Shown here: in pieces, positions 1,164 through 37,196 of the stretch | Layout: each line of letters begins with the position of its first letter | Position numbering within the stretch: the stretch's first letter is position 1 | NCBI GenBank assembly: GCA_951406725.2 | Contig: OX597815.1 | Location: forward strand, 23,374,001-23,438,000 | Length of the DNA stretch: 64,000 bases | Origin: Octopus vulgaris | Taxonomy: Eukaryota | Direction: 5' to 3' | Notes under the pieces: model-generated | The model's database searches: none | What the model saw: only the letters and a program-made list of their open reading frames with translations | Told to the model about the DNA's origin: nothing | Made by a program: the position numbers and the translations under genes

Positions 1164-1635
1164 CATGGTCAGCCAGCATCTTTTCCTTCCTCACCAAATC
1201 ATTACAGTAGTAAAAACAATGATTTCATGACAGAATCAAAAGCAGGCCAAATAGAGGCAATGCCAGATATAAAGGAAATCAGGGTAAAAAGGAATATAGC
1301 AGAAGTATCACGAGCAACAGATATACCTGCAAATGCGCAACCATTTAATGCACAAGGAAATTTAATATCATCAACTGTATCTTATGCTTCAGCATTACTT
1401 GCCGCACTTGAGAATGGAACAAAACTCAATGATTCTGAACTAACAACTCCATTCAGTGCATCTCGGAATACAATGTTAATTAACACAACTGGAGAAGACG
1501 CTTCTTATGTAACAGCATCGACCAATGACACTGAGAATGTAACACAGTTTGACACACAAACACGATCAGTGAACACATCTGAAGAAACATCAACTCCATA
1601 TGTAACCACAACACCTTTAATAACTACGACTACTA
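1164..1635 (+). CDS. RPTP exon: Ser/Thr-rich mucin-like extracellular segment (HGQPASF...PLITTTT)
   Basis: Long poly-T tract + TAG acceptor at 1161-1163; open frame shared with ORF 1227..1673; six N-x-S/T sequons; GTAAG donor at 1636, phase 1. Confidence 0.8.
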
Positions 1636-5249: not shown

Positions 5250-8120
5250 AGGGAAAACTGACTCCGGTGACTAAAGATTTTAGGTGAGTCGAAAGAAGTA
5301 ATGAGAAGAAAGCAAAAGATTACTAGAATTAAAAGGTGTTAATAAAAGGAAGTTACTTGATATTATTATGAAAGTAGATACTATAGATATAGATGACTCT
5401 AACTTATTGAGCTATGCAGCAGGTGTGGTAGTTACTAGAAGACTAGGTATTCCACGAGGAAAGAATAGGAAGGAGCAGGTGCAGACAAGGAAATTACAAA
5501 ATAAAGTGAATATTTTAAGCCAAGATCTGAGTAGAATAGAAGCCTAGGAACAGGACAAGGTGGGAAATACAAGATTTAAATCTTCTCTTAAGAAAACATA
5601 CTTAGTTAAAGAGAAAGGGTTTAGGATAGTCGTGGAAGAGTTGAAACAATGTATCATAGCAGTATCTAGTAAGCTTTCCAGATATCAGAAAAGAATAGAT
5701 CAGTATCAACAGAATAGATTGTTAGAGACAAACCAGAGGAAATTTTATTGCCAAGTAAATAGTGTAGAAGAAACTACTGAGGATGAGGAACCTAATGTAG
5801 AAGAAACTAGAAAGTTCTGGAGTGATATTTGAGATAAACCAGTTGATCATAATGAGGATGCAACATGGTTAAAGAAAGTGAGGGAAGAAATGGTTAGCGA
5901 GAAGTGGACAGATCTAAAACTAACTAGTGCTTTAATGAATAACATGTTAGGAAGAATGCTGAATTGGAAGGAAGAGCACTGGACCAGATTTAGTTCAAGG
6001 ATATTGGTTAAAGATATTTAGAAACTTATATGGTAGAATGAGAGAACAGCTTCAGGATTGTTTGAATGGAGGAGTCATACCTATCTGGATGACTGGAGGG
6101 AGAGAGTACTCCTTATAAAAGACAAAAGTAAGGGAAATATAGCTAGTAATTATAGACCAATAATTTGCTTACCATTAGTGAGCAAAGTGTTAACAGGAAT
6201 GCTCTCATGAAGCATTTCTGAACATCTTGACAGACAGAATTTACTTCCAGAAAAAACAGAAAGATTGCAGGAAGAAGGCTAGAGGAGTGCATGATCTATT
6301 ATACATAGACAAAGCAGTTCTAAAAGAAGTGAAATCAAGAAAGAAAAATTTTATTATGGATAGATTATAAGAACACCTATGACATGATTTCATGTTCATG
6401 GATAAGCAAATGTTTGAGTATATTCAATATTACAGATAACATAAAAGATTTAGTTAGCTATAACACAAAAAAAATGGAAAGTAGACCTTTACTCAGGTCA
6501 TACAACCTTAGGGAAAGTTAATATCAAGAGAGGTAATCTTCCAAGGAGACTCATTGTCTCCTTTGATATTTATGTTACCTTTAACCACCCCTCAATTTAG
6601 TATTAAGAAAGGCAAAGGCTAGGTATCAGTTCAGAGATAGTAAAGGAAACATTAGCAATTTGCTCTACAAGGAGTATTTGAAGCTTTTTAGTAAGAATAA
6701 AAAGGAGACAGATTCTTTAATAAAAACTGTAAGACTCTTTAGCAAAGATATAAGCATGGAATTTGGCATAGATAAGTGTGCAATATTAGTCATAAAATAA
6801 GTAAAGGTAGTCAGTAGTGAAAGCATTCAAAAACCAGATGGCCAGAGATTAAAATCATTGAAAGGGGTAAGTTATAAGCATCAAGGAGTATTAGAATCTG
6901 ACAGAATACTAACTATAGAAATGAAAGAGAAAGTTGATAAGAAGTACGTCAGAAGGGTGAGGAAGTTAATGAAGTCAAAGCTAAATGGTCCGAATCTGGT
7001 GAAGGCTGTAAATATTTGGTTCAGCATCCTTACTTAGATATTCAGCAGCTTTTGTAGATTGGACAAGATCTGAATTAGCAAATCTAGACAGAAGAATGAA
7101 TTCAATATGAATGGAGGTGCAGGAGTGGCTGTGTGGTAAGTAGCTTGCTAACCAGCCACATGGTTCCAAGTTCATGCCACTGCGTGGCATCTTGGGCAAG
7201 TGTCTTCTGCTAGAGCCTTGGGCCAACCAATGCCTTATGAGTGGATTTGGTAGACATATGTATATATGTGTGTGTGTGTTTGTGTTTGTCCCCCTAGCAT
7301 TGCTTGACAACCGATACTGGTGTGTTTACGTCCCCGTCACTTATCGGTTCGGCAAAATAGACCGATAGAATAAGTACTGGGCTTACAAAGAATAAGTTCT
7401 GGGGTCGATTTGCTCGACTAAAGGCGGTGCTCCAGTATGGCCGCAGTCAAATGACTGAAACAAGTAAAAGAGTAAAAGAGAGGAGTAGCAAGATTCTATT
7501 TACCTAGAAAGAAAGGTGGTAGAGGTTTAATATCAGTAGAAGACTGTGTGGAGCTAGCTAGAGTGGATATAGCTTCCTATGTAGGTAATAGTGACAAAAT
7601 TTTAGTGTAACAGTAGGAGATAAGGAAACCAAAAAACCAAATGTCAGTAAAAGCCATAAAAAAGAAGCAAGATTATCTGACTGATAAGAGAAAGCTTTGC
7701 ATGGTAGATTTCTAAAAATAGTTGCAGAAAATAATAATAGTGAAACATGGTTGTGGTGGTAGAAAGGAAAGCTAAAAAGAGAGACAGAAAGTTTGTTAAT
7801 TGGAACATAAGATCAGGCATAGAGGAATAACTGAATAAAAGCTAAGATAGATAAAAATCAGGTAAATTCTCTATGTAGGTTACATAAATTAAAGGACGAA
7901 AGTGTAACTTATATAGTTAATGAATGTAGTATGCTAGCACAAAAGGAATGCAAAAAAGTATGACAACTTAGGGAGAATAATCCATTGGAAGTTATGTAGA
8001 AAGCTAGAAAATGACCATACTGATAAGTGGTACAAATGTGAACCTAGTCAAGTGCTAGTAAGTAAGAAGTATAAGATTTTGCAGAGTTTTAAGATTCATA
8101 CTGACAGAGTAAATAAACTT
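5250..8120 (+). mobile_element. Degenerate R4/Dong-like LINE (RT region and CCHC knuckle region), interrupted by a SINE at 7113-7480
   Basis: Translatable remnants NYRPIICLPL, FQGDSLSPL and KIL.SFKIHTD; many stops and frameshifts. Confidence 0.75.
7113..7480 (+). mobile_element. SINE family A copy nested in the LINE
   Basis: Reverse complement of 594-980. Confidence 0.85.
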
Positions 8121-8124
8121 AGTA

Positions 8125-8815
8125 AACTTGTAGAGTAGGATATGGCCTAGTCACCAGTATAGTTAATCAGATTGTCCCCTTGTAAGTCATACCCAACAAC
8201 TGGTGTAGCAACATTATAGTCAACTGTTACAAAGGTAAAGATGATGCTTTAGACAGAAATAATTACAGAGGTATCAGATCGCTGGACCAAGTGATGAAAG
8301 TTACAGAAAGGATCATAGCTCAACTAATTAGGAAGAGGGTTAGTCTAGATGAGATGCAGTTTGTGTTTGTGCCTGGAAGGAACACTACTGATGCTATCTT
8401 CTTGGACTAGCAACTGCAGGGGAAGTATTTAGCCAAAAATAAACTTCTGTACTTGGTTCTTGTCAACATGGAGAAATCCTTGGGTGGGGACACTGACTCT
8501 CTTATCTGGTGGGCAATGCTGAAGCCAGGAATAGATGAGTGGTTGGTGAGAGCTGTACAGGCCATGTACAGGATGGAGTCTGAGGTGAAAGTCGGCAATG
8601 ATATTAGCTTGGAATTTAGTGTATAGTTAGGAGTTCACCAAGGATTGGCTCACAGACCCTTCTTGTTTATCATAGTTCTCTAGGCCATAACAGAGGGATT
8701 TAAAACTGGCTGCCCACAGGAGCTCTTCTACACCGATGACCTTATTCTTATAGCTGAATGATGACCAGAACTAGGGAAGAAATTACAGGTGTGGAACAAG
8801 GTCTGGGATCAAAAG
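8125..8815 (+). mobile_element. RTE-clade LINE RT fragment, truncated at the exon-cassette junction
   Basis: Colinear with the RTE copy at ~37260-37946 (GRNTTDAIF, LFYTDDL, W.QGL.SK). Confidence 0.8.
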
Positions 8816-9659
8816 GCTAGAATAGAGATAACAGACCGCCAGCGGAATCTATTGTTCTCAACAATATCTCTATCCTTCTGGCTAGTTTTGGATAGTTATA
8901 AAAACAAGAACTCCGTAAGCCAAAGCAGTTAGTGAGAGCGACTGACAGAGAGGCGGCTGACCAGCTCAAACAAAATACTGTCTCTACTGAGATAACTTCA
9001 GAGAGTGACAACAATGTAGAAAGTGTCTCATCCCACACTCTCTCATTTTCATTAGCTCCCTTTCTTTTCTCTGCAACATCACCATATCTCTATATATATA
9101 CTACTTTGTGTACACTCATATACAGGCCAAAATTAACTCTTTTTACCTTGCATGCTTTACAAACTGTGTTATACTATTACACTAGCCTACCTGTTGTGGT
9201 ATGGTAGATATTAAAGTAACGGTAAATAAATATTTCTTTACAACCACTATCACTGTTCTCTTCCATCTTGCATACTGGCAACCAACACCTTAACAACGAA
9301 CCGTTACACTTTCTTGAGTGTTTTCCAGTGTAATTTTTCTTTATATTTTCAGTTTGTTTTGTTACCCTCCAACACATTTTGATCATAAACATTCTTGTTA
9401 AACTTGAAACTTTGATGCATGTTCTCCCAAAATGTACCTAATTCATTTTTAAAGAAAGAAATCTTTTGATATCTTCCTAAAATTATGAATAATAAATATA
9501 ATAACAATAATATATTATCATAAGAGAAAATCTAATAGCATTATCTAACAATTCAGAAATGCATTATTTCTGTTGTTGAGTTCCATAAATTTGAATATAA
9601 TAATTATTATAAGTTGGTGTACACAGTTTAATTTTTATAATTAATGTGTTTCATTGCAG

Positions 9660-9782
9660 AATCGGCACTTAATGAGAAATGTGAAAGAGATACATCCTGC
9701 ATAGATGAATTTGCCATTTGCAGAAATCAAAAGTGTGTCTGTCAAGATGATTATTTTGAAGATGAATCTAAGTGTAAAAAAA
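9660..9782 (+). CDS. RPTP exon: 6-Cys EB/EGF-like module copy 1 (SALNEKCERDTSCIDEFAICRNQKCVCQDDYFEDESKCKK)
   Basis: TTTCATTGCAG acceptor, GTAAGT donor, 123 nt phase 1-1, C-x5-C-x6-C-x4-C-x-C-x10-C. Confidence 0.85.
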
Positions 9783-9864
9783 GTAAGTTAAAAACAACAG
9801 AACTTTGACATTGAACTATAAAAAGGATTACAATTACTCTTAGAAATAATTTTAAAAAAATAGA

Positions 9865-11080
9865 GGTGTAGGTAGAAACTCTATAAGATGTACCCAGTGT
9901 AAGCTATGGACACATAAGAGGTGCAGTAATATCAAGGGAAGGCTAATTGAGAAGATAGTTTTTGTATGTGGCAGATGCTCGGGAGCGATAAACACTGAAA
10001 ATGTGCAGAGACCAACTTCTGCCACATTCCAGGGAGAAAAACTAGAAGTAGTTGATAGCTTCCGTTACTTAGGGACCAAGTCAGTAGCGGAGGCGGGTGC
10101 ACTGAAAGTGTAGCTGCTAGAATAAGAATAGCTTGGGCAAAGTTCAGAGAGCTCTTACCTCTGCTGGTGACAAAGGGCCTCTCACTCAGAGTAAAAGGTA
10201 GACTGTATGACACTTGTGTATGAACAGCCATGCTACATGGCAGTGAAACATGGGCTGTGACTGCTGAGGTCATGTGTAAGCTCGCAAGGAATGAAGCCAG
10301 TATGATCTGATGGATGTGTAATGTCAGTGTGCATACTAGACAGAGTGTAAGTACCTCGAGAGAAAAGTTGGACCTAAGAAGCATTAGATGTGATGTGCAA
10401 GAGAGACGACTGCGCTGGTATGGTCACGTGGTGAGAATGGATGAGGATAGCTGTGTGAAAAAGTGCCACACCCTAGCTGTTGAGGGAACCTGTGGAAGCA
10501 GTAGACCTGGGATGAAGTGGTGAAGTACGACCTTCGAACTTTAGGCCTCACCAAGGAAATGACTAGCGACTGAGACTTTTGGAAATATGCTGTGCTTGAG
10601 AAGACGCGGCAAGCCAAATGAGACCATAATCTGTGGCTTATGCCAGGAGCGTCACCAGCCCGCTTATGCATACCTTTTCCTTCTTTGGTCACTAAACTCT
10701 GCTTGCGAAGACCTGTTGAGGCAAGTGAAATCGAAATCAAAATCAAAATCAAATTCGATGACTGGCATCCGTGCTAGCGAGGTGCAAAGAGCACCATATA
10801 AGGGTGATCGTTGACAGAGCGGCTAACCGGCTTCCGTACCAGTGGCACATAAAAGGGCACCATTTGAGTGTGATCGTTACCAGCATCGCCTTACTGGCAC
10901 CTGTGCTGGTGGCATGTGTAAAAAGATTCGAGCGAGGTCGTTGCCAGTACCACCTGACTGGGTCCCGTGCTGGTGGCACGTAAAAAGCACCCACTTACAA
11001 TCTCAGAGTGGTTGGCATTAGGAAGGGCATCCAGCTGTAGAAACTCTTCCAGATCAAGATTGGGGCCTGGTGCAGCCATT
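9865..11080 (+). mobile_element. RTE-clade LINE 3' part plus 3' UTR repeats (duplicated at ~18019-19230)
   Basis: GVGRNSIRCTQCKLWTHKRC and ERRLRWYGHVVRM motifs; GTGGCACGTAAAAAGCACC repeats. Confidence 0.85.
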
Positions 11081-12650
11081 TGAGTAATTTCCCAAAAATC
11101 AGGGTTTTTATAACTACTCATATCCGAATTCTAAGAACTGTATTTCGTGAAAGATTTCTTTTACGAAAGTTTAGAATTCATATATGGGCAGTAATTTTAA
11201 CCATTGGGATACCAACAATTGTGCTTGTTCGGGCAAACGAACATTATGTAATATTGCCACCTTTTATGACTTGCTACATAGGTATAATGTACATATACCA
11301 CATTATGAGACTATGAGGTAATATATGTGAAATTAAGTTCCTATTTCTTGCTAATCAATCTGTATTGTTGACTTGTCGAGTAATACATTCAAAGTGTTTG
11401 TGAAAGAGACAATAAAATGAGTTTAGATTGGAATAACTGAAGACTGAAGGTTGTTTTTCATATATTAACCATAAAATTTAATTCTTCAAGTTCTCTTAGG
11501 AAGATGAAAGTGCATTAATGTTTGTTGGGAGGAAGGTGAGAGTGGGAGAAATGTGAGAGTAGGAGGATGGTAAGAGTGGGAGGAAGGTGAGTGAATGCCA
11601 CTGATCAAACTGCTTGCAAAGCAGTGAAAAGAACAACAATTATGATGCCACTACCTACAATGGTGATGATGGTGGTTAAGATGGTGTATCATACTGTATA
11701 TTAAAAAGATGGTGGTGTTTCAGTATACAGTACAGTATGTGTAGCATAATTTTAACTATTATTAGAGCACTAGTGTAGCTAGAGGGGAACAGAGGGTTTG
11801 TCTTCCCTGTACAGCACTTTTATGGGTGTGGTGCCACTTTTGGGTCTGCTGTAGGCAATATGTACTTTTTGTGACAGCCCAGGTATGGCAGACTGAAGGG
11901 CCACCCTGGATGGCAGACACGCTAGCTACACTATTGTATTAGAGTGGTGCATTGGTAGAGTGGCAGTACATCAGCCTTTGATATTTAGTTGCATATCTTT
12001 ACATTCTGAATTAAAATCTTCCCAAGATCAGCTTTACGTTTCATTTTTCTAGAGTCAATAAAATAAGTTCCAGTATTCTGCTGAACCTAGTATAAGCAAC
12101 AGTCCCTTTTCCTCATAAATATGTGGTCCTTGTGTTTCCATTATGAATGATAATTTAAATTATCAGCTAATGAGATGTGATTTATACTTTAGTTTAACTG
12201 CTCACCTCTACACATACATATGTAGCAAACCTAGGTATTCTCTGTGTCTCAACGTGATCCTGGTGCTAAACTTACAGCCATCCTAGGCTGCATCCAGAGA
12301 AACACAACCTGAATGATTGGTATGAAGTCACTCGTAATACTCCAACCTCTGGCTCATTGACATGCCGTCTCCTCTCTGCATTATCTACCACTGCTACAAT
12401 GACCTCTGCTGTCAGAACCGACAGATCTTGTGTTACTTCCATTCAGTCTTTCCTCACTTACCTCTTCCACTCTCATTACCCATAATATGTCTCCACAGGG
12501 TTCATATTAATTACTTTACCAATTCCTTTCTTGCTGAAGCGTTGGCACTCAGGAATTCTGTCCCTGTTCATGTTTCTTCTGTAGCTGTTGTCTTAAAATT
12601 GTTCAAGAAGAATATCATATGTATCTCACTAGTCTGAGAGGGGCTACTAT

Positions 12651-13035
12651 GGAGGCGCAATGGCCCAGTGGTTAGGGCAGCAGACTCGCGGTCATAGGAT
12701 CGTGGTTTCGATTCCCAGACCGGGCGTTGTGAGTGTTTATTGAGCGAAAAACACCTAAAGCTCCACGAGGCTCCGACAGGGGATGATGGTGATCCCTGCT
12801 GTACTCTTTCACCACAACTTTCTCTCACTCTTACTTCCTATTTCTGTTGTACCTGTATTTCAAAGGGCCGGCCTTGTCACTCTCTGTGTCACGCAGAATA
12901 TCCCCGAGAACTACGTTAAGGGTACACGTGTCTGTGGAGTGTTCAGCCACTTACACGTTAATTTCACGAGCAGGCTGTTCTGTTGATTCGGATCAACCGG
13001 AACCCTCGTCGTCGTAACCAACGGAGTGCTTCCAT
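12651..13035 (+). mobile_element. tRNA-derived SINE family C (GGAGGCGCAATGGCCCAGTGG...GGTTTCGATTCCC)
   Basis: A and B boxes; copies at 20801-21198 and 52782-53163. Confidence 0.85.
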
Positions 13036-13365
13036 GGCTATAAGTGCAGCTCATTTCTCCAGACCAAACCAAAAATATAAAATAGTGTTTCTGTTATCAG
13101 CAGTATAGCGTAAATTTCACCATATATGTCAAAATTGTGATGCAAGAAACCCTAACTAAATGTACAATAGCAAACATAAGCAAGCTGGAAAAGAAAAATT
13201 AACCTCAGTGTTTTAATTTTAAGAAATATACTAATAATAGTGGGCTGCTAATGGTAGCTTGTATTAAACATGTATTACAATGAAAGCTTAATTATTCCAT
13301 ACTTTATGTTGCTGCATACTAGCATGTTGTAATGTGTATGTTACCAGTAATAGTGTTTGGTTTAA

Positions 13366-13586
13366 CCCTTTAGTGTTCGCATTATTCTACCCAAATTAAT
13401 GCTTTTTCATCCTCGTAGTTTTGAACTAATCATGCATTATCTTGTAGCTATGAGATTTTGATGAGGTAGCTGTTAATTTTTAAAACGATATTGTAGGGTT
13501 GGTGTGAGAGACCAAATCTGGCCAGTTTGACCATAAAACAGGCAGAATACTTTAGGCCGGATATGGCCGGTTTAAATGCTAAAGGG
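13366..13586. mobile_element. TTAA-flanked MITE (piggyBac-like termini CCCTTTAG...CTAAAGGG)
   Basis: TTAA on both sides and terminal inverted repeats; other copies at 21531-21751, 45587-45807 and 55730-56515. Confidence 0.75.
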
Positions 13587-13895
13587 TTAAATCACCAGTG
13601 TATATGTTTGTTTTACAGTATAGATGATTGGTATTGATATGTTGTAGAGAAGGGCGGTGAATGAAGTGTTTATTAAAGGAATAATTGATGAATCTTCTCT
13701 ACGACATAAAAATATTTATTTACTTTAAACTACAAAAAATCAACAAAACAGTCTCAGCAATCGAGCGAGCGAGTGAGAGAGGGAGAGAGTTAAACAGGGT
13801 AAATTTTTAAGCTTGTTGATGTGTGTGTATGTTAGTGTCAGGCAAGCTGTGCTCTTCTGGTGATGTTGACCAGGGTTAAAGGTATGTATATGTAT

Positions 13896-14130
13896 AGGCG
13901 GCGAGCTGGCAGAAATGGTAGCACGCCGGGCGAAATGCTTTGCAGTATTTCGTCTGCCGTTACGTTCTGAGTTCAAATTCCGCCGAGGTCGACTTTGCCT
14001 TTCATCCTTTCGGGGTCGATTAATTAAGTACCAGTTACACACTGGGGTCGATATGATCGACTTAATCCGTTTGTCTGTCCTTGTTTGTCTCTTCTGTGTT
14101 TAGCCCCTTGTAGGTAGTAAAGAAATAGGT
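13896..14130 (+). mobile_element. SINE-like family B copy (duplicated at 22066-22300)
   Basis: Reverse complement of 4845-5066. Confidence 0.75.
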
Positions 14131-14429
14131 ATGTATATGGATTTGTACGACAAAGCATGGCTGGTTATGGTAGTTAATCCCTGTTGCTGCTACTGCAGTT
14201 GTGACTAACAACATATCATAGTGATGATAGTGAACATGTTTAACCATAGGATACCAATAACCTATGTTGAATAATCTCTCAGTCTCTATTTTAATAAAGG
14301 AGGTTAGAAGAATGAGTTGAGGATAGAGGGATCAGGAAATATCAAGCTGACATTTCTGGTTGACAAGAAAATACCAACAAAAGGTCTTTTCTTCATTTCC
14401 CAATGAAACAAATATCTTGAAAAATAAGG

Positions 14430-15643
14430 GTGTGACTGGTCCCTCCAGGGAGCTGGCCCTGCTCAATATATAGAAAAATAGTAGTTGAAACTCCATACAG
14501 TGTACCCAGTGCAAGCTATGGACACATAAGAAGTGCAGCAGTGTCACAGGAAGGTTAACCCTTTCGTTACTAACCCGGCCGTACCCAACCGAAAAATTAT
14601 TTTTTGGTTCATAATACCAACCCGGCCGTGAGAACCTGTTGTTATTTAAATGTAAATTTGAACCCAAATCTCACCCTTTCGTTACTAACCCGGCCGTATA
14701 GAGAAAGTAGTCTGTGTGTGTGGCAGGTGTGCAGGTACAATAAACACAAAGAATGTACAGAATATAGCTTTCCTCAAATGTCTGGTGGGTGGGGTTCCTT
14801 AGAAGTAGTAGATAACTTCTGTTACCTAGGTAACCAAGTTAACATTGGAGGAGGACGCTCTGGCAGTGTAGTTGCTAGAGTAAGAATGGGCTGACAAAGT
14901 TGGTAACAAAGGGGGTTTCCTTCAGCATGAAAGGCAGATTGTATGCTATCTGTATATGAATAGCGATGCTCCATGACAGTGAATCATGGGATGTGACTAT
15001 AGAGGATAAGTGAAGGCTTGAAAGAAATGAAGCCAGCATACACCACTGGATGGGTAATGTCACTGTGCATGTGTGACAGAGTGTAAATAATTTAAGAAAA
15101 TAACCAGGTACAAGAGGCATCAGATGTAATGTGCATGAGAGAAGACTGCGAGTGTGGTTATTGGATGTGTATGGATGAGAACAACTGCATAAAGAAGTAC
15201 CTATCTCTAAGCTGTAGAGGGAGCCTGTAGAAGGGGTAGATAGAGGAAGATGTAGGACAGAGTGGTGAGAAAGGATCTTCAGATATTGAGCCACAATGAG
15301 GGGATGACAAGGGAATGAGACTTCTGGCAATTTGGTGTGCTTGAGAAGACATGTCAAGCTAAGTAAAATTGTGGCCATCCATACATAGAGGTATGTCCTT
15401 TATGGCCATCACTCCCTCTCCTCATCAAGCACACATAATTCTGTCCTATGGCAAAACTCACCCCCAACCCATCTTACCAAAACCTCTATCACCCGCTATA
15501 TGCCCCTCCAGTTCCTCTCAATGTCACTTCTTATCTCTAAATACATCCCCTCACACTGTTATGATACATCTTTAATTCATCTGTGTGACTCATACCCTTC
15601 TACCCACTATTCCCTGTAGGTAGGCCCTCACTCTCTCTCTCTC

Positions 15644-15694
<51 letters not shown>

Positions 15695-16133
15695 GCTTTT
15701 TTATCCTATTGGGGTAGCCAAATATTTCTTGTCACAAAACAGCTATCTGTATCCTCTGATCATACCCCAACCTCTCGCCTGTCACATGACCACTTCTCTC
15801 AGCTGAGACATCTTTGTCTTGCAAGCCACTTGGTGACCTTGTGGGTACTGGCACCATGTAAAAAGCATCCATGCTGGTACTACATAGGAAGTACCTGTGC
15901 CATGCTGGTGTCACATAAAAAGCACTTGTGCCAGTACTACGTAATAAGCACCCAGTACACTCTCTGGAGTGGCTGTCATTTGGAAGGTCATCTAGCTATA
16001 AAACCCATGTTTGAACAGGCAACTGGGACCTGGTTCAGCCCTCTGGCTTGCTAACTCTTGTTGAACCATCCAGCCTATGCCGGCATGGAAAATGGATGAT
16101 AAATGATGATGATGATGACGACGATAATGATGA
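14430..16133 (+). mobile_element. Older degenerate RTE 3' fragment with (GAT)n tail (duplicated at ~22600-24297)
   Basis: WPCS...NSIQCTQCKLWTHK and LEVVDNFCYLGNQV remnants; tail CCGGCATGGAAAATGGATGATAAATGATGATG. Confidence 0.7.
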
Positions 16134-16450
16134 AGGCCTGATTTAGTAGTATTAGCAGACAAAGTGAATAGAAAGAGCCAGGTAGTTGATTTTACAGTCA
16201 CAAATGATGAGAAAGTCAACTTCAAAATATAGAAAAAATATCAAAGTACCAGGACATAGCCATTGAGTTACAGAGGTTATGGAAAATGTGGGCAAAATAC
16301 ATTCCAGCAGTTAAATGTGCATCAGGAACTATCTTTAGATATATGAACAGATGCATAGAGGAAATAGGCATAAAACTTAGTTTAGTGCAGTTCCAGAAAA
16401 CAGTATTAGTATGGTCAGCTAGGATACTTAGGAAAGGTTTCGTCATCTAA
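16134..16450 (+). mobile_element. R4/Dong-like LINE C-terminal restriction-like endonuclease remnant (duplicated at 24298-24614)
   Basis: RPDLVV...VVDFTV...KYQDIAIEL.RLW...QKTVL..SARILRK. Confidence 0.7.
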
Positions 16451-16628
16451 GGTTAGAAATTTTGGCAAAAGACTGGCAATTTGGTGGGATGGGGTAAGTC
16501 AATTACATCGACCCCAGTGTTCAACAGGTAATCCCTTATTAACATAGAAACACAGAAATTCAAAATATGAATGAGGAAATCCTGCATTCCTTCTTAGATA
16601 CAAAAAAAAAAAAACATTATTATTATTA

Positions 16629-16683
<55 letters not shown>

Positions 16684-17813
16684 AGTAATTGTTTCCAATT
16701 TTAGTACAAGGCCAGCAATTTTGGATAGGGGATAAGTTGATTACATCAACTGCAGTACTCAAGTGGTACTTATTTTATTGACCCAGGTATAGTGTGGATT
16801 CAATCCTCGATGGCCAAATTTCACTTAACAGTTCAACAGCACTTTTCTCACGGTAAAACGGTAGTTTTCCTGTGAGTGACAGCTGTTACATTTGCCAGAT
16901 GCCTTTGCTAAGCAGAATAATATCTTTGCCACTTGACCCTTCTAACCTCTTCTATTTCACCAAAAGCTAGAATAGACATAACAGACCACCAACGAAATCT
17001 ATTGTTCTCAACAATATGTCTATCCTTCTGGCTGGTTTTGGATAGTTAGAAAAACAAGAACTCCCTCTGTAAGCCAAAGCAGTTAGTGAGAGCGACTGAC
17101 AGAGAGGCGGCTGACCAGCTCAAACAAAATACTGTCTCTACTGAGATAACTTCAGAGAGTGACAACAATGTAGAAAGTGTCTCATCCCACACTCTCTCAT
17201 TTTCATTAGCTCCCTTTCTTTTCTCTGCAACATCACCATATCTCTATATATATACTACTTTGTGTACACTCATATACAGGCCAAAATTAACTCTTTTTAC
17301 CTTGCATGCTTTACAAACTGTGTTATACTATTACACTAGCCTACCTGTTGTGGTATGGTATATATTAAAGTAACGGTAAATAAATATTTCTTTACAACCA
17401 CTATCACTGTTCTCTTCCATCTTGCATACTGGCAACCAACACCTTAACAACAAACCGTTACACTTTCTTGAGTGTTTTCCAGTGTAATTTTTCTTTATAT
17501 TTTCAGTTTGTTTTGTTACCCTCCAACACATTTTGATCATAAACATTCTTGTTAAACTTGAAACTTTGATGCATGTTCTCCCAAAATGTACCTAATTCAT
17601 TTTTAAAGAAAGAAATCTTTTGATATCTTCCTAAAATTATGAATAATAAATATAATAACAATAATATATTATCATAAGAGAAAATCTAATAGCATTATCT
17701 AACAATTCAGAAATGCATTATTTCTGTTGTTGAGTTTCATAAATTTTAATATAATAATTATTATAAGTTGGTGTACACAGTTTAATTTTTATAATTAATG
17801 TGTTTCATTGCAG

Positions 17814-17936
17814 AATCGGCACTTAATGAGCATTGTGAAAGAGATACATCCTGCATAGATGAATTTGCCATTTGCAGAAATCAAAAGTGTGTCTGTCAAG
17901 ATGATTATTTTGAAGATGAATCTAAGTGTAAAAAAA
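17814..17936 (+). CDS. RPTP exon: 6-Cys module copy 2 (K>H relative to copy 1)
   Basis: Same splice sites and length as 9660-9782; codon AAA>CAT. Confidence 0.8.
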
Positions 17937-20800
17937 GTAAGTTAAAAACAACAGAACTTTGACATTGAACTATAAAAAGGATTACAATTACTCTTAGAAA
18001 TAATAAAAAAAAAAATAGAGGTGTAGGTAGAAACTCTATAAGATGTACCCAGTGTAAGCTATGGACACATAAGAGGTGCAGTAATATCAAGGGAAGGCTA
18101 ATTGAGAAGATAGTTTTTGTGGCAGATGCTCGGGAGCGATAAACACTGAAAATGTGCAGAGACCAACTTCTGCCACATTCCAGGGAGAAAAACTAGAAGT
18201 AGTTGATAGCTTCCGTTACTTAGGGACCAAGTCAGTAGCGGAGGCGGGTGCACTGAAAGTGTAGCTGCTAGAATAAGAATAGCTTGGGCAAAGTTCAGAG
18301 AGCTCTTACCTCTGCTGGTGACAAAGGGCCTCTCACTCAGAGTAAAAGGTAGACTGTATGACACTTGTGTATGAACAGCCATGCTACATGGCAGTGAAAC
18401 ATGGGCTGTGACTGCTGAGGTCATGTGTAAGCTCGCAAGGAATGAAGCCAGTATGATCTGATGGATGTGTAATGTCAGTGTGCATACTAGACAGAGTGTA
18501 AGTACCTCGAGAGAAAAGTTGGACCTAAGAAGCATTAGATGTGATGTGCAAGAGAGACGACTGCGCTGGTATGGTCACGTGGTGAGAATGGATGAGGATA
18601 GCTGTGTGAAAAAGTGCCACACCCTAGCTGTTGAGGGAACCTGTGGAAGCAGTAGACCTGGGATGAAGTGGTGAAGTACGACCTTCGAACTTTAGGCCTC
18701 ACCAAGGAAATGACTAGCGACTGAGACTTTTGGAAATATGCTGTGCTTGAGAAGACGCGGCAAGCCAAATGAGACCATAATCTGTGGCTTATGCCAGGAG
18801 CGTCACCAGCCCGCTTATGCATACCTTTCCTTCTTTGGTCACTAAACTCTGCTTGCGAAGACCTGTTGAGGCAAGTGAAATCGAAATCAAAATCAAAATC
18901 AAATTCGATGACTGGCATCCGTGCTAGCGAGGTGCAAAGAGCACCATATAAGGGTGATCGTTGACAGAGCGGCTAACCGGCTTCCGTACCAGTGGCACAT
19001 AAAAGGGCACCATTTGAGTGTGATCGTTACCAGCATCGCCTTACTGGCACCTGTGCTGGTGGCATGTGTAAAAAGATTCGAGCGAGGTCGTTGCCAGTAC
19101 CACCTGACTGGGTCCCGTGCTGGTGGCACGTAAAAAGCACCCACTTACAATCTCAGAGTGGTTGGCATTAGGAAGGGCATCCAGCTGTAGAAACTCTTCC
19201 AGATCAAGATTGGGGCCTGGTGCAGCCATTTGAGTAATTTCCCAAAAATCAGGGTTTTTATAACTACTCATATCTGAATTCTAAGAACTGTATTTCGTGA
19301 AAGATTTCTTTTACGAAAGTTTAGAATTCATATATGGGCAGTAATTTTAACCATTGGGATACCAACAATTGTGCTTGTTCGGGCAAACGAACATTATGTA
19401 ATATTGCCACCTTTTATGACTTGCTACATAGGTATAATGTACATATACCACATTATGAGACTATGAGGTAATTTATGTGAAATTAAGTTCCTATTTCTTG
19501 CTAATCAATCTGTATTGTTGACTTGTCGAGTAATACATTCAAAGTGTTTGTGAAAGAGACAATAAAATGAGTTTAGATTGGAATAACTGAAGACTGAAGG
19601 TTGTTTTTCATATATTAACCATAAAATTTAATTCTTCAAGTTCTCTTAGGAAGATGAAAGTGCATTAATGTTTGTTGGGAGGAAGGTGAGAGTGGGAGAA
19701 ATGTGAGAGTAGGAGGATGGTAAGAGTGGGAGGAAGGTGAGTGAATGCCACTGATCAAACTGCTTGCAAAGCTGTGAAAAGAACAACAATTATGATGCCA
19801 CTACCTACAATGGTGATGATGGTGGTTAAGATGGTGTATCATACTGTATATTAAAAAGATGATAGTGTTTCAGTATACATTACAGTATGTGTAGCATAAT
19901 TTTAACTATTATTAGAGCACTAGTGTAGCTAGAGGGGAACAGAGGGTTTGTCTTCCCTGTACAGCACTTTTATGGGTGTGGTGCCACTTTTGGGTCTGCT
20001 GTAGGCAATATGTACTTTTTGTGACAGCCCAGGTATGGCAGACTGAAGGGCCACCCTGGATGGCAGACACGCTAGCTACACTATTGTATTAGAGTGGTGC
20101 ATTGGTAGAGTGGCAGTACATCAGCCTTTGATATTTAGTTGCATATCTTTACATTCTGAATTAAAATCTTCCCAAGATCAGCTTTACGTTTCATTTTTCT
20201 AGAGTCAATAAAATAAGTTCCAGTATTCTGCTGAACCTAGTATAAGCAACAGTCCCTTTTCCTCATAAATATGTGGTCCTTGTGTTTCCATTATGAATGA
20301 TAATTTAAATTATCAGCTAATGAGATGTGATTTATACTTTAGTTTAACTGCTCACCTCTACACATACATATGTAGCAAACCTAGGTATTCTCTGTGTCTC
20401 AACGTGATCCTGGTGCTAAACTTACAGCCATCCTAGGCTGCATCCAGAGAAACACAACCTGAATGATTGGTATGAAGTCACTCGTAATACTCCAACCTCT
20501 GGCTCATTGACATGCCGTCTCCTCTCTGCATTATCTACCACTGCTACAATGACCTCTGCTGTCAGAACCGACAGATCTTGTGTTACTTCCATTCAGTCTT
20601 TCCTCACTTACCTCTTCCACTCTCATTACCCATAATATGTCTCCACAGGGTTCATATTAATTACTTTACCAATTCCTTTCTTGCTGAAGCGTTGGCACTC
20701 AGGAATTCTGTCCCTGTTCATGTTTCTTCTGTAGCTGTTGTCTTAAAATTGTTCAAGAAGAATATCATATGTATCTCACTAGTCTGAGAGGGGCTACTAT

Positions 20801-21198
20801 GGAGGCGCAATGGCCCAGTGGTTAGGGCAGCAGACTCGCGGTCATAGGATCGCGGTCATAGGATCGTGGTTTCGATTCCCAGACCGGGCGTTGTGAGTGT
20901 TTATTGAGCGAAAAACACCTAAAGCTCCACGAGGCTCCGACAGGGGATGATGGTGATCCCTGCTGTACTCTTTCACCACAACTTTCTCTCACTCTTACTT
21001 CCTATTTCTGTTGTACCTGTATTTCAAAGGGCCGGCCTTGTCACTCTCTCTGTCACGCTGAATATCCCCGAGAACTACGTTAAGGGTACACGTGTCTGTG
21101 GAGTGTTCAGCCACTTACACGTTAATTTCACGAGCAGGCTGTTCTGTTGATTCGGATCAACCGGAACCCTCGTCGTCGTAACCAACGAAGTGCTTCTA
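20801..21198 (+). mobile_element. SINE family C copy with a private 14-bp tandem duplication
   Basis: Matches 12651-13035 except for an extra TCGCGGTCATAGGA. Confidence 0.85.
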
Positions 21199-23812: not shown

Positions 23813-23858
<46 letters not shown>

Positions 23859-24793
23859 ACTTTTTTATCCTATTGGGGTAGCCAAATATTTCTTGTCACA
23901 AAACAGCTATCTGTATCCTCTGATCATACCCCAACCTCTCGCCTGTCACATGACCACTTCTCTCAGCTGAGACATCTTTGTCTTGCAAGCCACTTGGTGA
24001 CCTTGTGGGTACTGGCACCATGTAAAAAGCATCCATGCTGGTACTACATAGGAAGTACCTGTGCCATGCTGGTGTCACATAAAAAGCACTTGTGCCAGTA
24101 CTACGTAATAAGCACCCAGTACACTCTCTGGAGTGGCTGTCATTTGGAAGGTCATCTAGCTATAAAACCCATGTTTGAACAGGCAACTGGGACCTGGTTC
24201 AGCCCTCTGGCTTGCTAACTCTTGTTGAACCATCCAGCCTATGCCGGCATGGAAAATGGATGATAAATGATGATGATGATGACGACGATAATGATGAAGG
24301 CCTGATTTAGTAGTATTAGCAGACAAAGTGAATAGAAAGAGCCAGGTAGTTGATTTTACAATCACAAATGATGAGAAAGTCAACTTCAAAATATAGAAAA
24401 AATATCAAAGTACCAGGACATAGCCATTGAGTTACAGAGGTTATGGAAAATGTGGGCAAAATACATTCCAGCAGTTAAATGTGCATCAGGAACTATCTTT
24501 AGATATATGAACAGATGCATAGAGGAAATAGGCATAAAACTTAGTTTAGTGCAGTTCCAGAAAACAGTATTAGTATGGTCAGCTAGGATACTTAGGAAAG
24601 GTTTCGTCATCTAAGGTTAGAAATTTTGGCAAAAGACTGGCAATTTGGTGGGATGGGGTAAGTCAATTACATCGACCCCAGTGTTCAACAGGTAATCCCT
24701 TATTAACATAGAAACACAGAAATTCAAAATATGAATGAGGAAATCCTGCATTCCTTCTTAGATACAAAAAAAAAAAAAACATTATTATTATTA

Positions 24794-24851
<58 letters not shown>

Positions 24852-25981
24852 AGTAATTGTTTCCAATTTTAGTACAAGGCCAGCAATTTTGGATAGGGGA
24901 TAAGTTGATTACATCAACTGCAGTACTCAAGTGGTACTTATTTTATTGACCCAGGTATAGTGTGGATTCAATCCTCGATGGCCAAATTTCACTTAACAGT
25001 TCAACTGCACTTTTCTCACGGTAAAACAGTAGTTTTCCTGTGAGTGACAGCTGTTACATTTGCCAGATGCCTTTGCTAAGCAGAATAATATCTTTGCCAC
25101 TTGACCCTTCTAACCTCTTCTATTTCACCAAAAGCTAGAATAGACATAACAGACCGCCAACAAAATCTATTGTTCTCAACAATATGTCTATCCTTCTGGC
25201 TGGTTTTGGATAGTTATAAAAACAAGAACTCCCTCTGTAAGCCAAAGCAGTTAGTGAGAGCGACTGACAGAGAGGCGGCTGACCAGCTCAAACAAAATAC
25301 TGTCTCTACTGAGATAACTTCAGAGAGTGACAACAATGTAGAAAGTGTCTCATCCCACACTCTCTCATTTTCATTAGCTCCCTTTCTTTTCTCTGCAACA
25401 TCACCATATCTCTATATATATACTACTTTGTGTACACTCATATACAGGCCAAAATTAACTCTTTTTACCTTGCATGCTTTACAAACTGTGTTATACTATT
25501 ACACTAGCCTACCAGTTGTGGTATGGTAGATATTAAAGTAACGGTAAATAAATATTTCTTTACAACCACTATCACTGTTCTCTTCCATCTTGCATACTGG
25601 CAACCAACACCTTAACAACAAACCATTACACTTTCTTGAGTGTTTTCCAGTGTAATTTTTCTTTATATTTTCAGTTTGTTTTGTTACCCTCCAACACATT
25701 TTGATCATAAACATTCTTGTTAAACTTGAAACTTTGATGCATGTTCTCCCAAAATGTACCTAATTCATTTTTAAAGAAAGAAATCTTTTGATATCTTCCT
25801 AAAATTATGAATAATAAATATAATAACAATAATATATTATCATAAGAGAAAATCTAATAGCATTATCTAACAATTCAGAAATGCATTATTTCTGTTGTTG
25901 AGTTCCATAAATTTGAATATAATAATTATTATAAGTTGGTGTACACAGTTTAATTTTTATAATTAATGTGTTTCATTGCAG

Positions 25982-26104
25982 AATCGGCACTTAATGAGAA
26001 ATGTGAAAGAGATACATCCTGCATAAATGAATTTGCCATTTGCAGAAATCAAAAGTGTGTCTGTGAAGATAAATATTTTCGTCTTCGAACTAAGTGTGAA
26101 AAAA
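25982..26104 (+). CDS. RPTP exon: 6-Cys module copy 3 (SALNEKCERDTSCINEFAICRNQKCVCEDKYFRLRTKCEK)
   Basis: Same acceptor and donor, 123 nt phase 1-1, all Cys retained. Confidence 0.85.
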
Positions 26105-26210
26105 GTAAGTTAAAAACAACGGAACATTGACATTGAACTACAGAAAGGACTACAATTACTCTTAGAAATAATTTTTTAAAAATAGATAAAAGTTACAGAT
26201 ATATTGAAAG

Positions 26211-26499
26211 TACTGTATTTGATGGCATAAAAATGCACAGGCATATTAGATGCATCCCAATTTCAGCATCACATATTCAGGAAAAAGTTTTAGTGTATTA
26301 ACACTTTAGCATTTCAACCAGATATATCCTGTCAACAATATTCTCCTTGTTTTATGTTCAAAACATGCCAGTCCTGACCTCTCACACTTACCCACTGTAC
26401 AATGTTATTCGAAAAACATCATCATAATCTCAAGTGGAACTTTTTTGAGACATTGTTTTTCAAAAAATAGATGCATCTTATATGCCATCAAATGCAATA
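26211..26499. mobile_element. Degenerate TIR element (MITE) containing part of the TTAA-MITE family
   Basis: TACTGTATTTGATGGCATA at the left vs TATGCCATCAAATGCAATA at the right. Confidence 0.5.

Positions 26500-28846: not shown

Positions 28847-28881
<35 letters not shown>

Positions 28882-28883
<2 letters not shown>

Positions 28884-29733: not shown

Positions 29734-29735
<2 letters not shown>
28882..29735. repeat. Direct plus inverted repeat structure (Penelope pseudo-LTR-like)
   Basis: ~130-bp direct repeat at 28882-29011 and 29351-29480; ~255-bp inverted arms at 29139-29394 and 29479-29735. Confidence 0.85.
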
Positions 29736-30850: not shown

Positions 30851-31334
30851 TGATGATGGCGGTGACAACGATGGCGATGATGAAAGCAACAATAATGGTG
30901 ATAATGTTTTTCATTTCTATATATCAGTTGTGTCATAATCTTCAACATCAAACTGACAATTTATCATTTATTTGAATGTATAAAAATCAGTATAACAATA
31001 ATTTAATTTCTCTAGTTTGATTGTCCTAATAACTTTTGACTCTTCACAGAGCTAGCCTATGGTAAAAACTGTTCCGTGGAAGAGTGTCTTGATAAAAGGG
31101 CCCACTGTAATGAGCAACACAGGTGTGATTGTTTTGAGGTCTATTTTTGGAAACACGGAAAATGTGTAGACAGTAAGTAAACGTGTTATGATTGATTGAT
31201 TCTAGTTTCAGCTCACGAGCTGTGGCCATGCTGGGGCACTGCCATATGAGGACATTAAATTTTCTTCTTGTCAACTCTCTTTTAATTTAAGTTCAAAAAT
31301 AGAAAACCTTGAGGATATATTCCGTGTATTCTTT

Positions 31335-33494: not shown

Positions 33495-33623
33495 AGAAAG
33501 GTTTTGATGAAAAATGTGAAGAAGGGGATCAGTGTAAGGCTCGTAATGCCTATTGTTCCACTGAAACAAAGAGATGTACTTGCTCTGACAATTACAAGCA
33601 AAGTGAAACCATCTGTGTAAAAA
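33495..33623 (+). CDS. RPTP exon: divergent 6-Cys module 4 (KGFDEKCEEGDQCKARNAYCSTETKRCTCSDNYKQSETICVK)
   Basis: TTTCAG acceptor, GTAAGT donor, 129 nt phase 1-1, same Cys pattern with a 2-residue longer loop. Confidence 0.85.
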
Positions 33624-33789
33624 GTAAGTAAAAAGTGGAGCTCTTAATCAATGTCCATGTGTTCATCAAGTATGCTTTTGTAAGGACAGCCATATAGTGC
33701 AATATAGTTGTTTAACTTGAGGCCAACCCTGATTCAACAAACTAGTGATCAATGGTATTCTAGCCATGACAAGCCTGCCTTCTTTTCAG

Positions 33790-34539
33790 GAATAATGTAC
33801 ATATACCACATTATGAGACTATGAGGTAATTTGTGTGAAATTCGGTTCCTATTTCTTGCTAATCAATCTGTATTGCTGACTTGTCGAGTAATACATTCCA
33901 TGTGTTTGTGAAAGAGACGATAAAATGAGTTTAGATTGGAATAACTGAGGACTGAAGGTTGCTTTTTATATTTTAACCAAAAAATTTAATTCTTCAAGTT
34001 CTCTTAGGAAGATGAAAGTGCATTGATCTTTGTTGGGAGGAAGGTGAGAGTGGGAGAAATGTGAGAGTAGGAGGAAGGTAAGAGTGGGAGGAAGGTGAGA
34101 GAATGCTGCTTGCAAAGCTGTGAAAAGAACAACAATTATGATGCCACTACCTACAATGGTGATGATAGTGGTTAAGATGGTGTATCATACTGTATATTAA
34201 AAAGATGATAGTGTTTCAGTATACATTACAGTATGTGTAGCATAATTTTAACTATTATTAGAGCACTAGTGTAGCTAGAGGGGAACAGAGGGGTTGTCTG
34301 CCCTGTGCAGTACTTTTATGGGTGTGGTGCCATTTTTGGGTCTGCTTTAGGCAATATGTACTTTTTGTGGCAGCCCAGGTGTGGCAGACTGAAGGGCCAC
34401 CCCGGATGGCAGATACGCTAGCTACACTATTGTATTAGAGTAGTGCATTGGTAGAGTGGCAGTACATCAGCCTTTGATATTTAGTTGCATATCTTTACGT
34501 TCTGAATTGAAATATTCCCAAGATCAGCTTTACGTTTCA
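33790..34539 (+). repeat. Dispersed copy of intronic block 11281-12042 / 19431-20192
   Basis: Colinear match from ATAATGTACATATACCACATT to CAGCTTTACGTTTCA with scattered substitutions. Confidence 0.92.
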
Positions 34540-35505
34540 GCCAGCATCTTTTCCTTTCCCACCAAATCATCACATTAGTAAAAACAATGATTTCATGACA
34601 GACTCAAAAGCAGGCCAAATAGAGGCAATGCCAGATATAAAGGAAATCAGTGTAAAAAGGAATATAGCAGAAGTATCACGAGCAACAGATATACCTGCAA
34701 ATGCGCAACCATTTAATGCACAAGGAAATTTAATATCATCAACTGTATCTTATGCTTCAGCATTACTTGCCGCACTTGAGAATGGAACAAAACTCAATGA
34801 TTCTGAACTAACAACTCCATTCAGTGCATCTCGGAATACAATGTTAATTAACACAACTGGAGAAGACACTTCTTATATATAATAATAAACATTGTGTACA
34901 GTGCTCAGGTGCACTACAACTCATCTAAAGTGTATATATAATCAGGTGTAGTTTTGGCGGATTTCGGAAAGCATGAGGGCCTTAAAGGATGCAGTGTCAT
35001 GGCAGTCAACAACTGACGCAGGCAGTTTATTCCATGCTTCAGCAACTCTGAGCGTGAAAAAATGTTTCCGAAAGTCATGGGAGCTGTGTTGTTTTCTGAC
35101 TTTGTAGGCATGTCCACGTGTGTTAGACACATGGAGATCAAAAAGGTGTTCAGTGTTGTTGTTGGTGAGGTGGTTGATAACTTTGTGGGTGTTTACCAAA
35201 TCCGTCGCCAGACGCCGGAGCTTCAGTGAATCCATGCCCAGGGAAACAAGGCGCTCAGAATATGGTAGGTGTCTGATGGAGGGTATGCGTTTGGTTGCAC
35301 GTCTCTGGACAGATTCCAGGAGGTCAATGTTCTGAGCAAGATAGGGATTCCAAACTGATGATGCGAATTCCAAGTGTTATGTAACAGCATCGACCAGTTA
35401 CACAGTTTGACACACAAACACGATCAATGAACACATCTGAAGAAACATCAACTCAATATGCAATCACAACACCTTTAATAACTACGACTACTCGTAAAGA
35501 ATTAT
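34538..35505 (+). pseudogene. Pseudo-exon: duplicate of the Ser/Thr-rich exon (1169-~1645), interrupted by a CR1-like LINE fragment
   Basis: ORF 34595..34882 is nearly identical to the start of ORF 1227..1673; stop at the insertion; homology resumes at ~35377 (TTATGTAACAGCATCGACCA) with a small deletion and a mutated donor. Confidence 0.9.
34880..35374 (-). mobile_element. CR1-like LINE 3' fragment inserted in the pseudo-exon
   Basis: ORF 34942..35373: LESVQRRATKRIP...YSERL...TRGHAYK...FFTLRVAEAWNKLP; TTAT on both sides as a possible TSD. Confidence 0.88.
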
Positions 35506-36414
35506 AATTGTTTAAGAAGGATATTACATGGATCATCTTCCATTTGATCAACTTCCATCATATCATCTTCTGTTTGATTGGAACCTTCCATAGATCATGT
35601 TTGTTGCTCCCAGCAAATTATCTCATAATTGTCTTTTATGTTATAGGTTGGTTCCTCCTTCTTTGAACTCATAGATTGCTGAGATATCTTTCAGTTTCAT
35701 GTCTCTCTTTTTCAAATTATCTTCTGCGTCTGGGACTACTTTGGTATATTAGTATTCAAATCATCTGTCTATTCTGTTTTCTTGTCAGTCTAAAGTGAAT
35801 TGGGCTTGTATGTTTGCCCAAGTGATTGGTATGCAAGGTAGCTGACGTGTTTTCTAATGTTAGTGTTATAAAATGGTTAGATCACTTGTGCCACAAATCT
35901 CCAAGAGTCTTGATCTTTCATTCTGTATTCCATAACGTACTCTCTGTCTTCATTGGAGTACCCAACATCACATTGTCCAATATATCCATTAGAGTCACCA
36001 GCCATGGCAGCAAGATCAAGAAAACTAGACATAAATATAGGTGGAAAAAAAAAATCACCTGAATTTCACATGGTATTCAATCTCACCATTATATTTTTTT
36101 CTGATCAAGTTAAATAATAGTATTCTAGATTTGTAAACTCAATAGAGATGGTCAAGACAATAATGTGTAGCGCTTGATATATTGCCATATTTAACTTTGC
36201 TCTTCTTGATTCTGACTCCAAATCTCATAGTGATTGAACTTATCATCTTTCTTATCCTCCAAGATTGATGAATAAATATATCAAGGTAATCCAGTCCTAA
36301 AAACATTTGGCCTTTTATCTAATGAAAAAAAATTACCAACATTCTAAATATCTAAATACTATAAGCCTTTATTACTGATATGTTACATAAATTGATTCTA
36401 TTCTATATTTACAG

Positions 36415-36963: not shown

Positions 36964-37196
36964 TCTTTTTGTGCCTTATAATTTAACACACTCACCGGTA
37001 AAATTTCCACTTATTCCTTATTTTTATTTTCCTAAAATTTTCATTGTGTCTTGCAACCTTTTCAATAGTCTTGAAAATAGTCTCTTCAATAGTCTTGAAA
37101 ATGTTGCAAGACGCAATGAAAATTTTAGGAAAATAAAAATAAGGAATAAGTGGAAATTTTATCGGTGAGTGTGTTAAATTATAAGGCACAAAAAGA
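36964..37196. repeat. Near-perfect ~230-bp palindrome (foldback MITE-like)
   Basis: TCTTTTTGTGCCTTATAATTTAACAC... / ...GTGTTAAATTATAAGGCACAAAAAGA; the ORF track gives near-identical peptides on both strands. Confidence 0.9.

Follow-up and report, generated by a model that had tools for sequence, protein, structure and literature searches.

An exon cassette of ~1.05 kb (8816..9864) lies among LINE fragments in a 64,000-nucleotide stretch of Octopus vulgaris DNA (contig OX597815.1, positions 23,374,001-23,438,000; hereafter the window), and it raises the questions of how the exon came to lie there and whether it is a new part of the protein. The initial annotation had described it as copied into one RTE LINE, creating a new ectodomain module. 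The reading we favor, with a probability of roughly 0.68, is that DNA of the EB2 region was copied between different LINEs before the split from O. bimaculoides, was later remixed, and is under apparent positive selection.

The receptor gene and its three cassettes

The exons of the window match NCBI protein P0001 (receptor-type tyrosine-protein phosphatase C, Octopus vulgaris) at 100%, and the layout of P0001 is a signal peptide, a mucin-like stalk, EB modules, a transmembrane helix and one PTP domain. A Pfam search of the protein returned no FN3 domain (E <= 0.01) and no second PTP domain, and a single Y_phosphatase stretch was found in all four receptor proteins. We take the NCBI name 'PTPRC' to be a label only for the octopus receptor. 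The mucin-like stalk exon (1164..1635, + strand; tblastn with P0001 residues 19-165, 100%) lies upstream of the EB exons, which are symmetric, measure 123-129 nt, have AG/GT ends and start at 9660, 17814, 25982, 31050 and 33495, the last two being EB3 (31050..31172, +) and EB4 (33495..33623, +). Against Pfam EB (PF01683) the exons of cassettes X1, X2 and X3 scored 28.3, 28.7 and 27.0 bits, all above the 24.3 cut-off; EB4 scored 22.5 bits, below it, and EB3 alone gave no match. NCBI models contain one, two or three copies of the cassette exon (P0002, P0004 and P0001, respectively), and the models P0008 and P0003 are with or without EB1; as annotations, these models suggest exon skipping in the EB array. 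The model P0006 has a SENP8-like protein fused upstream of the receptor, probably by annotation read-through. Introns of the gene also hold a 600-bp palindrome (29139-29735, 91%), tied to a 134-bp direct repeat (28879-29012 = 29347-29480), and a 233-bp palindrome (36964-37196, 93%); a tandem array with a period of 100 bp lies at 59173-59583, 3' of the last large coding exon.

The flagged cassette X1 (8816..9864, +) comprises a truncated repeat T (8816-9310), an intron, exon EB1 (9660-9782; 123 nt, AG/GT) and 82 bp of downstream intron. Cassette X3 (24952..26186, +), the donor, comprises repeat T, an intron and exon EB2 (25982-26104), and runs on into the ancestral intron 3' of it. The recurrence of 8812-18004 as 16962-26172 (98.8% identity) brings the number of cassettes to three. 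Unit 1 of this 8.15-kb tandem repeat spans 8812..16961 (+; 98.8%) and unit 2 spans 16962-25129, with 0.2-0.3% substitutions between them in two interior stretches; cassette X2 (16784..18018, +; homology span 16966-18018) holds a longer repeat T and an exon at 17814-17936.

The left end of X2 is of X3 type and its right end of X1 type, a structure that would be expected as the product of one unequal crossover. We consider it fairly probable that a recent single unequal crossover between X1 and X3 generated X2 and with it a five-module receptor allele. Contigs of 7 of the 24 listed sequencing runs were compared with the window. X2 was not seen in the contigs of sequencing runs X1 or X3, which come from other animals. 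One contig of sequencing run X1 had a depth of 87.7 (expected, 86 for two cassettes and 116 for three), and in sequencing run X3 the unit interior had a depth of 18.5-24.1 versus 13.8-19 in the flank; contigs drop variants, and their depth is a hint only, not a copy number. A possibility to be taken seriously is that the assembly created X2 and the 8.15-kb repeat by placing two haplotypes in tandem, the gene then having four EB modules as it does in relatives. The divergence of the units (0.2-0.5%) lies inside the species heterozygosity (>1.1%; PMC6472339), the repeat adds no new junction, and both of these runs fit two cassettes. Against an artefact, the 2.8-Gb assembly consists of 227 contigs, suggesting that its reads probably span a 1-kb repeat, X2 shows exactly the structure expected of a crossover, and interior pieces in sequencing run X4 reached 75-98 versus 29 for the copy of segment P (see below), depths that weakly hint at a copy-number change in organism C. 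In the O. vulgaris genome it is X2, not X1, that represents a new module.

Junctions, LINE flanks and the source of X1

The immediate anatomy of X1 was as first described. RTE-like sequence stops at 8815 (8135-8817 aligns to 37260-37947) and switches at 8816 to homology with 25134-26185, 8812-9864 being 96.8% identical to 25130-26186. The microhomology with the donor claimed for both junctions was recovered, as CAAAAG on the left, with one extra G after it, and as TAGA on the right, where it is common to the donor and the young LINE family; the cassette bears no poly-A tail and retains its intron. The rough chance of an overlap of at least 6 bp on the left is 0.004, and of at least 4 bp on the right 0.03. 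The left overlap is partly inferred, since most members of the LINE family read CAAAGG or GAAGGG there. The template lies 16 kb downstream, and a template this near, with CAAAAG and TAGA microhomology at the junctions, is as expected of template switching (FoSTeS/MMBIR); the proposed DNA-level copying from 25134-26186, flanked by microhomology and with splice signals intact, is upheld. LINE-mediated transduction or retrocopy was ruled out, as splice sites and intron are kept and the A/T tract at the right end of X1 is also present in the donor. Rfam gave 0 matches over 8000-18100. No remnant of an older EB1 exon was found in the window, and a genome search for one returned 3 matches among 7 candidates, all inside the window.

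The LINE pieces on the two sides, provisionally labelled RTE, do not belong together. R5 (8135..8815, +), whose 3' side is cut by the cassette, is an old RTE-like fragment with a terminal branch of 0.158 in an old clade; R3a (9865..11077, +; branch 0.037) is a young 5'-truncated copy of a distinct element; and R3b (14440..15370, +; branch 0.144) is an old fragment and a candidate for the other half of R5. The nearest genome copies of R5 reach at most 80% identity (best of 39 other scored copies) and those of R3b (14740-15380) at most 76% over full length and 79% over shorter stretches, while those of R3a reach 91-93% (92.6% to the nearest 20). When these nearest 20 copies of R3a were compared with R5, 13 aligned over at least 300 bp at 73.0 +/- 1.5%, 4 aligned at 70-75% over shorter stretches and 3 were unaligned. 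A FastTree analysis of those fetched loci that cover both parts (27 of 60), together with the long copy of the window (loci picked by likeness to the three fragments), placed R5 and R3b in one old clade (support 0.957) and R3a in a young clade. The long RTE-like copy contains a PHD finger and an RVT_1 match below the cut-off (E = 7e-4). Young and old copies side by side are in keeping with recent RTE activity, such families being listed as recently active in O. vulgaris (PMC13282606).

It is practically certain that the left and right LINE pieces are different elements. Comparison of 8125-8815, 9865-10620 and 14430-15370, which the initial annotation had put forward as a check, groups R5 with R3b and away from R3a. 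RTE-like sequence does restart at 9864/9865 (~38046), as claimed, and the element positions are offset by ~100 bp, but what restarts is not the same LINE, and the offset is not a loss from a single RTE, the flanks being unlike in age and subfamily. The alternative already raised in the initial annotation, that the left RTE continues at ~14430 (with a block put there at ~5.5 kb, here ~5.6 kb), fits the age and tree tests and is plausible. R3b starts ~60 bp beyond the R5 stop on the element, and continuation of R5 at ~14440 in R3b is more likely than in R3a. The 60-bp closeness may be due to chance, because the loci were chosen by likeness and several RTE pieces of the window start within ~130 bp of one element position; R5 and R3b are of the same subfamily, as are many copies. 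The LINEs have no proven role as a target.

To establish the direction of copying, repeat T was informative. The first ~495 bp of the cassette are this dispersed repeat, for which 43 of the 46 listed matches lie outside the window and span query positions 1-500 only (best 40 of 1565 candidates scored). When aligned to X2, all 20 fetched copies reach further left than the X1 junction, and in 18 the alignment begins at 16784-16789; X1 starts ~180 bp inside T, and X2 and X3 hold the longer element. The start of X1 within repeat T fixes the copying direction. A 336-bp contig of run X16 (organism E) spans 25897-26233, exon included, which takes it past the end of cassette homology, and it carries the EB2 residue of P0010 at 18 of 18 changed codons (among listed exon differences). 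The longer T in X2 and X3 and this contig indicate that the context of X3 is ancestral and that the flanks of X1 are derived. Copying went, with high confidence, from the X3 position to X1 at the DNA level with splice sites kept. X1 and X3 have 0 derived sites in common in their first 99 bp versus 20/346 beyond, and the former value would also fit two independent copies of T. As an observation on the repeat itself, T (16784-17462; loci L001-L020) is a ~720-bp dispersed family with sharp ends and an internal inverted repeat, often tailed by (TA)n or (CA)n and without an Rfam match. Repeat T as the mobilising agent, or transposon capture, was ruled out because the junction lies ~180 bp inside T and not at its terminus.

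X1 is not the only local duplicate. Segment P (11280..12043, +), a low-copy intron piece, occurs also at 33788-34539 with 4.3-4.9% substitutions (32-37/749 differences), and gave three matches only among the best 40 of 1618 candidates scored. The downstream P lies just 3' of EB4, with strand and order relative to the cassette unchanged, and joins a partial mucin-exon copy over a TCA overlap; together they form a second duplicate (33788..35513, +) whose mucin part (34537-34879 and 35377-35513) is interrupted at 34880-35376. The ends of the mucin copy differ from the expressed exon at 6/115 and 10/136 sites (5-7%), and 216 bases are identical to it (1284-1499). From 216 identical bases between ends 5-7% apart, conversion between the mucin exon and this pseudo-exon appears to have occurred, in either direction. 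Divergence is similar (4-7%) across the ends of the X cassettes (6/99 and 5/68), P and the mucin ends. Comparison of 11323-11730 with 19473-19880 showed that unit 2 matches the 33788 copy at all five unit differences within P (37 versus 32 differences). No downstream counterpart was found for the block beyond P (12040-14460), a result that speaks against a simple single copy; the six short matches obtained lie at or close to known repeats. The end of the 5.6-kb block was also compared with the intron that precedes the transmembrane exon, and no homology was found; both of these stretches are near-unique, without a third copy that could show them adjacent.

One complex template-switch event, or a short series, may accordingly be pictured as having copied the downstream ectodomain region into R5/R3b. 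A switch at CAAAAG would have departed from the old LINE R5, taken up DNA from further downstream in the gene and rejoined the element ~60 bp along, at R3b, creating a block now ~5.6 kb long; the arrival of the young R3a was probably accompanied or followed by loss of the middle of this block, so that X1 and P are left in donor order. We give even odds to this particular course, with the switch from R5 to R3b and the loss around R3a.

The chief alternative for the origin of X1 dispenses with templated insertion. EB1 would be an older tandem paralogue, and unequal crossover inside the exons would have produced an EB2/EB1 chimera carrying the upstream intron of EB2; a later microhomology deletion from R5 to repeat T would have removed the original EB1, R3a would be an ordinary truncated insertion and R3b would be unrelated to R5. 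EB1 (9660..9782, +) is indeed chimeric, its 5' two-thirds being common to EB2 and its EB1-type 3' tail occurring also in P0008 and P0010. The tails of EB1 and EB2 differ at 12/40 bases and the next intron at 5/68, which this history would account for, as it would for the lack of shared derived sites in the first 99 bp, and it needs only one non-homologous junction on the left side. It does not account, however, for the copy of P, which is alike in age and order, or for the agreement of R5 with R3b in age, clade and position, and we regard it as unlikely. The original proposal, one RTE copy split by a 1.05-kb templated insertion that lost ~100 bp and made a new module, can be dismissed: flanks collinear on the element, microhomology at both junctions and an R3a branch near half of the cassette end divergence speak for it, but R5 and R3a fall in separate clades, the nearest copies of R3a match R5 at 73% instead of ~92%, R5 alone would have to mutate ~4x faster than adjacent DNA, and relatives already possess the exon slot.

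Exchange between the copies and age of the event

Copying was followed by exchange. X1 and X3 differ at 11/167 end sites versus 4/828 middle sites (Fisher p = 1.6e-6), and the contrast between ends at 6-7% and a middle at 0.5% indicates that conversion homogenised the two. Cassette X3 carries residues that P0008 has in EB1 only, at positions 1, 9, 10, 21 and 22 (EB2 of P0008 differs), and the EB1 exon of sequencing run X3 carries P0008 EB2-type residues at positions 9 and 10; the exchange is therefore both-way and polymorphic. The paralogues are more alike within than between species, in patches, as in concerted evolution. The mosaic is directly visible, and the 1-kb direct repeat very probably served as the substrate of conversion in both directions. 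Conversion has likely remixed the copies and unequal crossing-over multiplied them, under apparent positive selection on the EB modules.

In run X16 a single tail contig (depth 18.4) is matched by two different EB1-type 5' halves (12.4 and 8.4), which the tabulated depths most simply suggest to be two alleles. Record 23 of this run was rejected as a plain EB1 orthologue, as it is EB2-like at codons 1, 11, 21 and 26 and EB1-like at codons 28-29; a converted allele or an additional copy is the better reading. In this genome the tail differences between 9758-9767 and 26080-26089 read almost as a 10-bp inversion. A micro-inversion of 10 bp as their source is weakened by the letter of the relatives at 26086 and is a possibility only.

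The claim that the insertion created a new ectodomain module fails on the relatives. The four EB modules of P0008 (O. sinensis) include one exon of X1 type and one of X3 type, and P0010 (O. bimaculoides) also has four, the first two with distinct X1-type and X3-type tails; since the exon slot is present in both, EB1 is not new. In run X16 of organism E, the 82-bp downstream intron is covered by a second contig that agrees with X1 at 26141 and 26143, and there are two versions of the upstream intron, so this lineage also has the duplicated flanks. Among the contigs of organism E none was seen to carry the left junction. A contig of sequencing run X3 crosses the left junction by 24 letters and the right by 26, below the threshold of 31 letters. 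From these relatives, the X1 event in all likelihood predates the split from the P0010 lineage. O. vulgaris and O. bimaculoides diverged 13-34 million years ago with a mean autosomal dS of 0.123 (PMC10925132), and genome-wide divergence of O. bimaculoides is given as ~8% (PMC6472339). The flagged cassette is likely many millions of years old. The end divergence of X1 and X3 (6-7%) is below the published neutral divergence of 8-12% to O. bimaculoides; conversion has therefore probably reached the ends as well, and they would time the latest exchange, not the origin. In Argonauta, the stalk of the homologue P0011 is rich in repeats and an EB module is absent; either Octopus gained the EB exons, Argonauta lost them, or the P0011 gene model fails to include them.

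Apparent selection on the EB modules and comparison with known systems

Use of the flagged exon is indicated by run X17 from a relative (organism C; presumed to be RNA). One of its contigs, 2128 nt long, has EB2 immediately preceded by the last 27 bases of the X1-type exon and immediately followed by the start of EB3; EB1 is thus spliced in series in at least one run. Run X13 had no contig across the exon, which is not evidence in either direction.

The four EB exons show 78 amino-acid differences over 389 non-synonymous sites relative to P0010 (p = 5e-7), counting one change per residue against an expectation of 0.113 derived from the published dS of 0.123, a genome-wide value and not a codon model. 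EB3 and EB4 lack a close paralogue that could act as a conversion donor, and the two by themselves gave 38/195 (p = 6e-4). Compared with P0010, every EB exon has 18-20 changed residues out of 40-41, an amino-acid divergence of ~2x the neutral rate in all four, and the PTP domain is 94.7% identical over 226 residues. All six cysteines are retained in every EB copy; in EB3 (20/40 residues different from P0010) and EB4 (18/41) likewise all cysteines are kept. In the contig of organism E, 24 of 24 listed exon differences fall in residue-changing codons, though silent changes may be unlisted, and five intron pieces differ at 24/517 sites (4.6%). These counts make diversifying selection on the ectodomain probable, exerted by some external binding partner for which a pathogen or a self/non-self ligand is the likeliest candidate. 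An immune cause is a tentative suggestion.

We find it improbable that the EB modules are instead a spacer under relaxed constraint, shaped by drift and conversion and not by selection. The absence of the module from P0011 and the near-identity of EB3 to that of P0008 (1/40 residues different) would suit a spacer; non-synonymous divergence above both the published dS and the local intron divergence, conservation of the six cysteines in all copies, and the fast change of EB3 and EB4 without a close paralogue as a conversion source argue against it.

Literature searches by topic listed nothing on the octopus receptor gene, and a search with the locus tag returned 0 papers. In a study of gene-level dN/dS in two sibling octopuses the word 'phosphatase' is absent from the main text; its gene-level values may bear on the selection claim and on novelty (PMC13669787).

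As a rearrangement the event is ordinary. What it illustrates is how a small intragenic duplication can become a lasting source of variation in domain number and domain sequence, with steps that are readable in introns, and it supplies a candidate arms-race receptor in cephalopods, in which, to our knowledge, few immune or recognition receptors are established. We regard as doubtful the far-reaching idea of an immune or self-recognition receptor with a built-in diversifier, composed of a cassette accordion, a silent mucin-copy donor and an ectodomain arms race. If it were true, the 1-kb cassette would alter the number of EB modules between animals and swap module halves, and the silent downstream mucin-exon copy would act as a conversion donor for the expressed stalk exon.

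Among known systems, FoSTeS/MMBIR events resemble the octopus case in short junction microhomology, a nearby template and the lack of target-site duplication or poly-A (PMC4229983). LINE insertion with flanking deletion and template switching is known, and retrotransposon insertion-associated deletions are alike in tying a LINE insertion to loss of flanking DNA (PMC4229983). Unlike the events described there, the octopus case is fixed, old and coding, and involves several templates of similar age from the same gene; FoSTeS/MMBIR and tandem duplication plus deletion are not separable here without outgroup introns.

Dscam also has tandem ectodomain exons in an invertebrate receptor, but these are mutually exclusive and without conversion (PMC3236188), whereas the octopus exons are serial and converted. 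Abalone VERL is a mollusc surface receptor whose repeats are homogenised by conversion or unequal crossing-over, with length polymorphism and positive selection (PMC2704960); the octopus gene differs in that each repeat is its own exon, 8 kb apart, that two of the four modules exchange, and that exon tails escape homogenisation.

CD45/PTPRC is likewise a type I receptor PTP with a mucin-like N-terminus and a Cys-rich part, and its ectodomain exons diverge faster than an intron in primates (PMC4379584). The two are alike in combining a fast ectodomain with a conserved phosphatase, the octopus result being based on counts and not on codon models. The octopus receptor has one PTP domain instead of two, no FN3 domain where CD45 has three, and EB modules; assignment to the CD45/PTPRC subtype, which has two PTP domains and three FN3 domains, was rejected on this composition. 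Variation in module copy number and conversion come in addition, and the ligand or pathogen is putative. Templated duplication, concerted evolution and a CD45-like fast ectodomain are known mechanisms, met here in an apparently unstudied octopus receptor.
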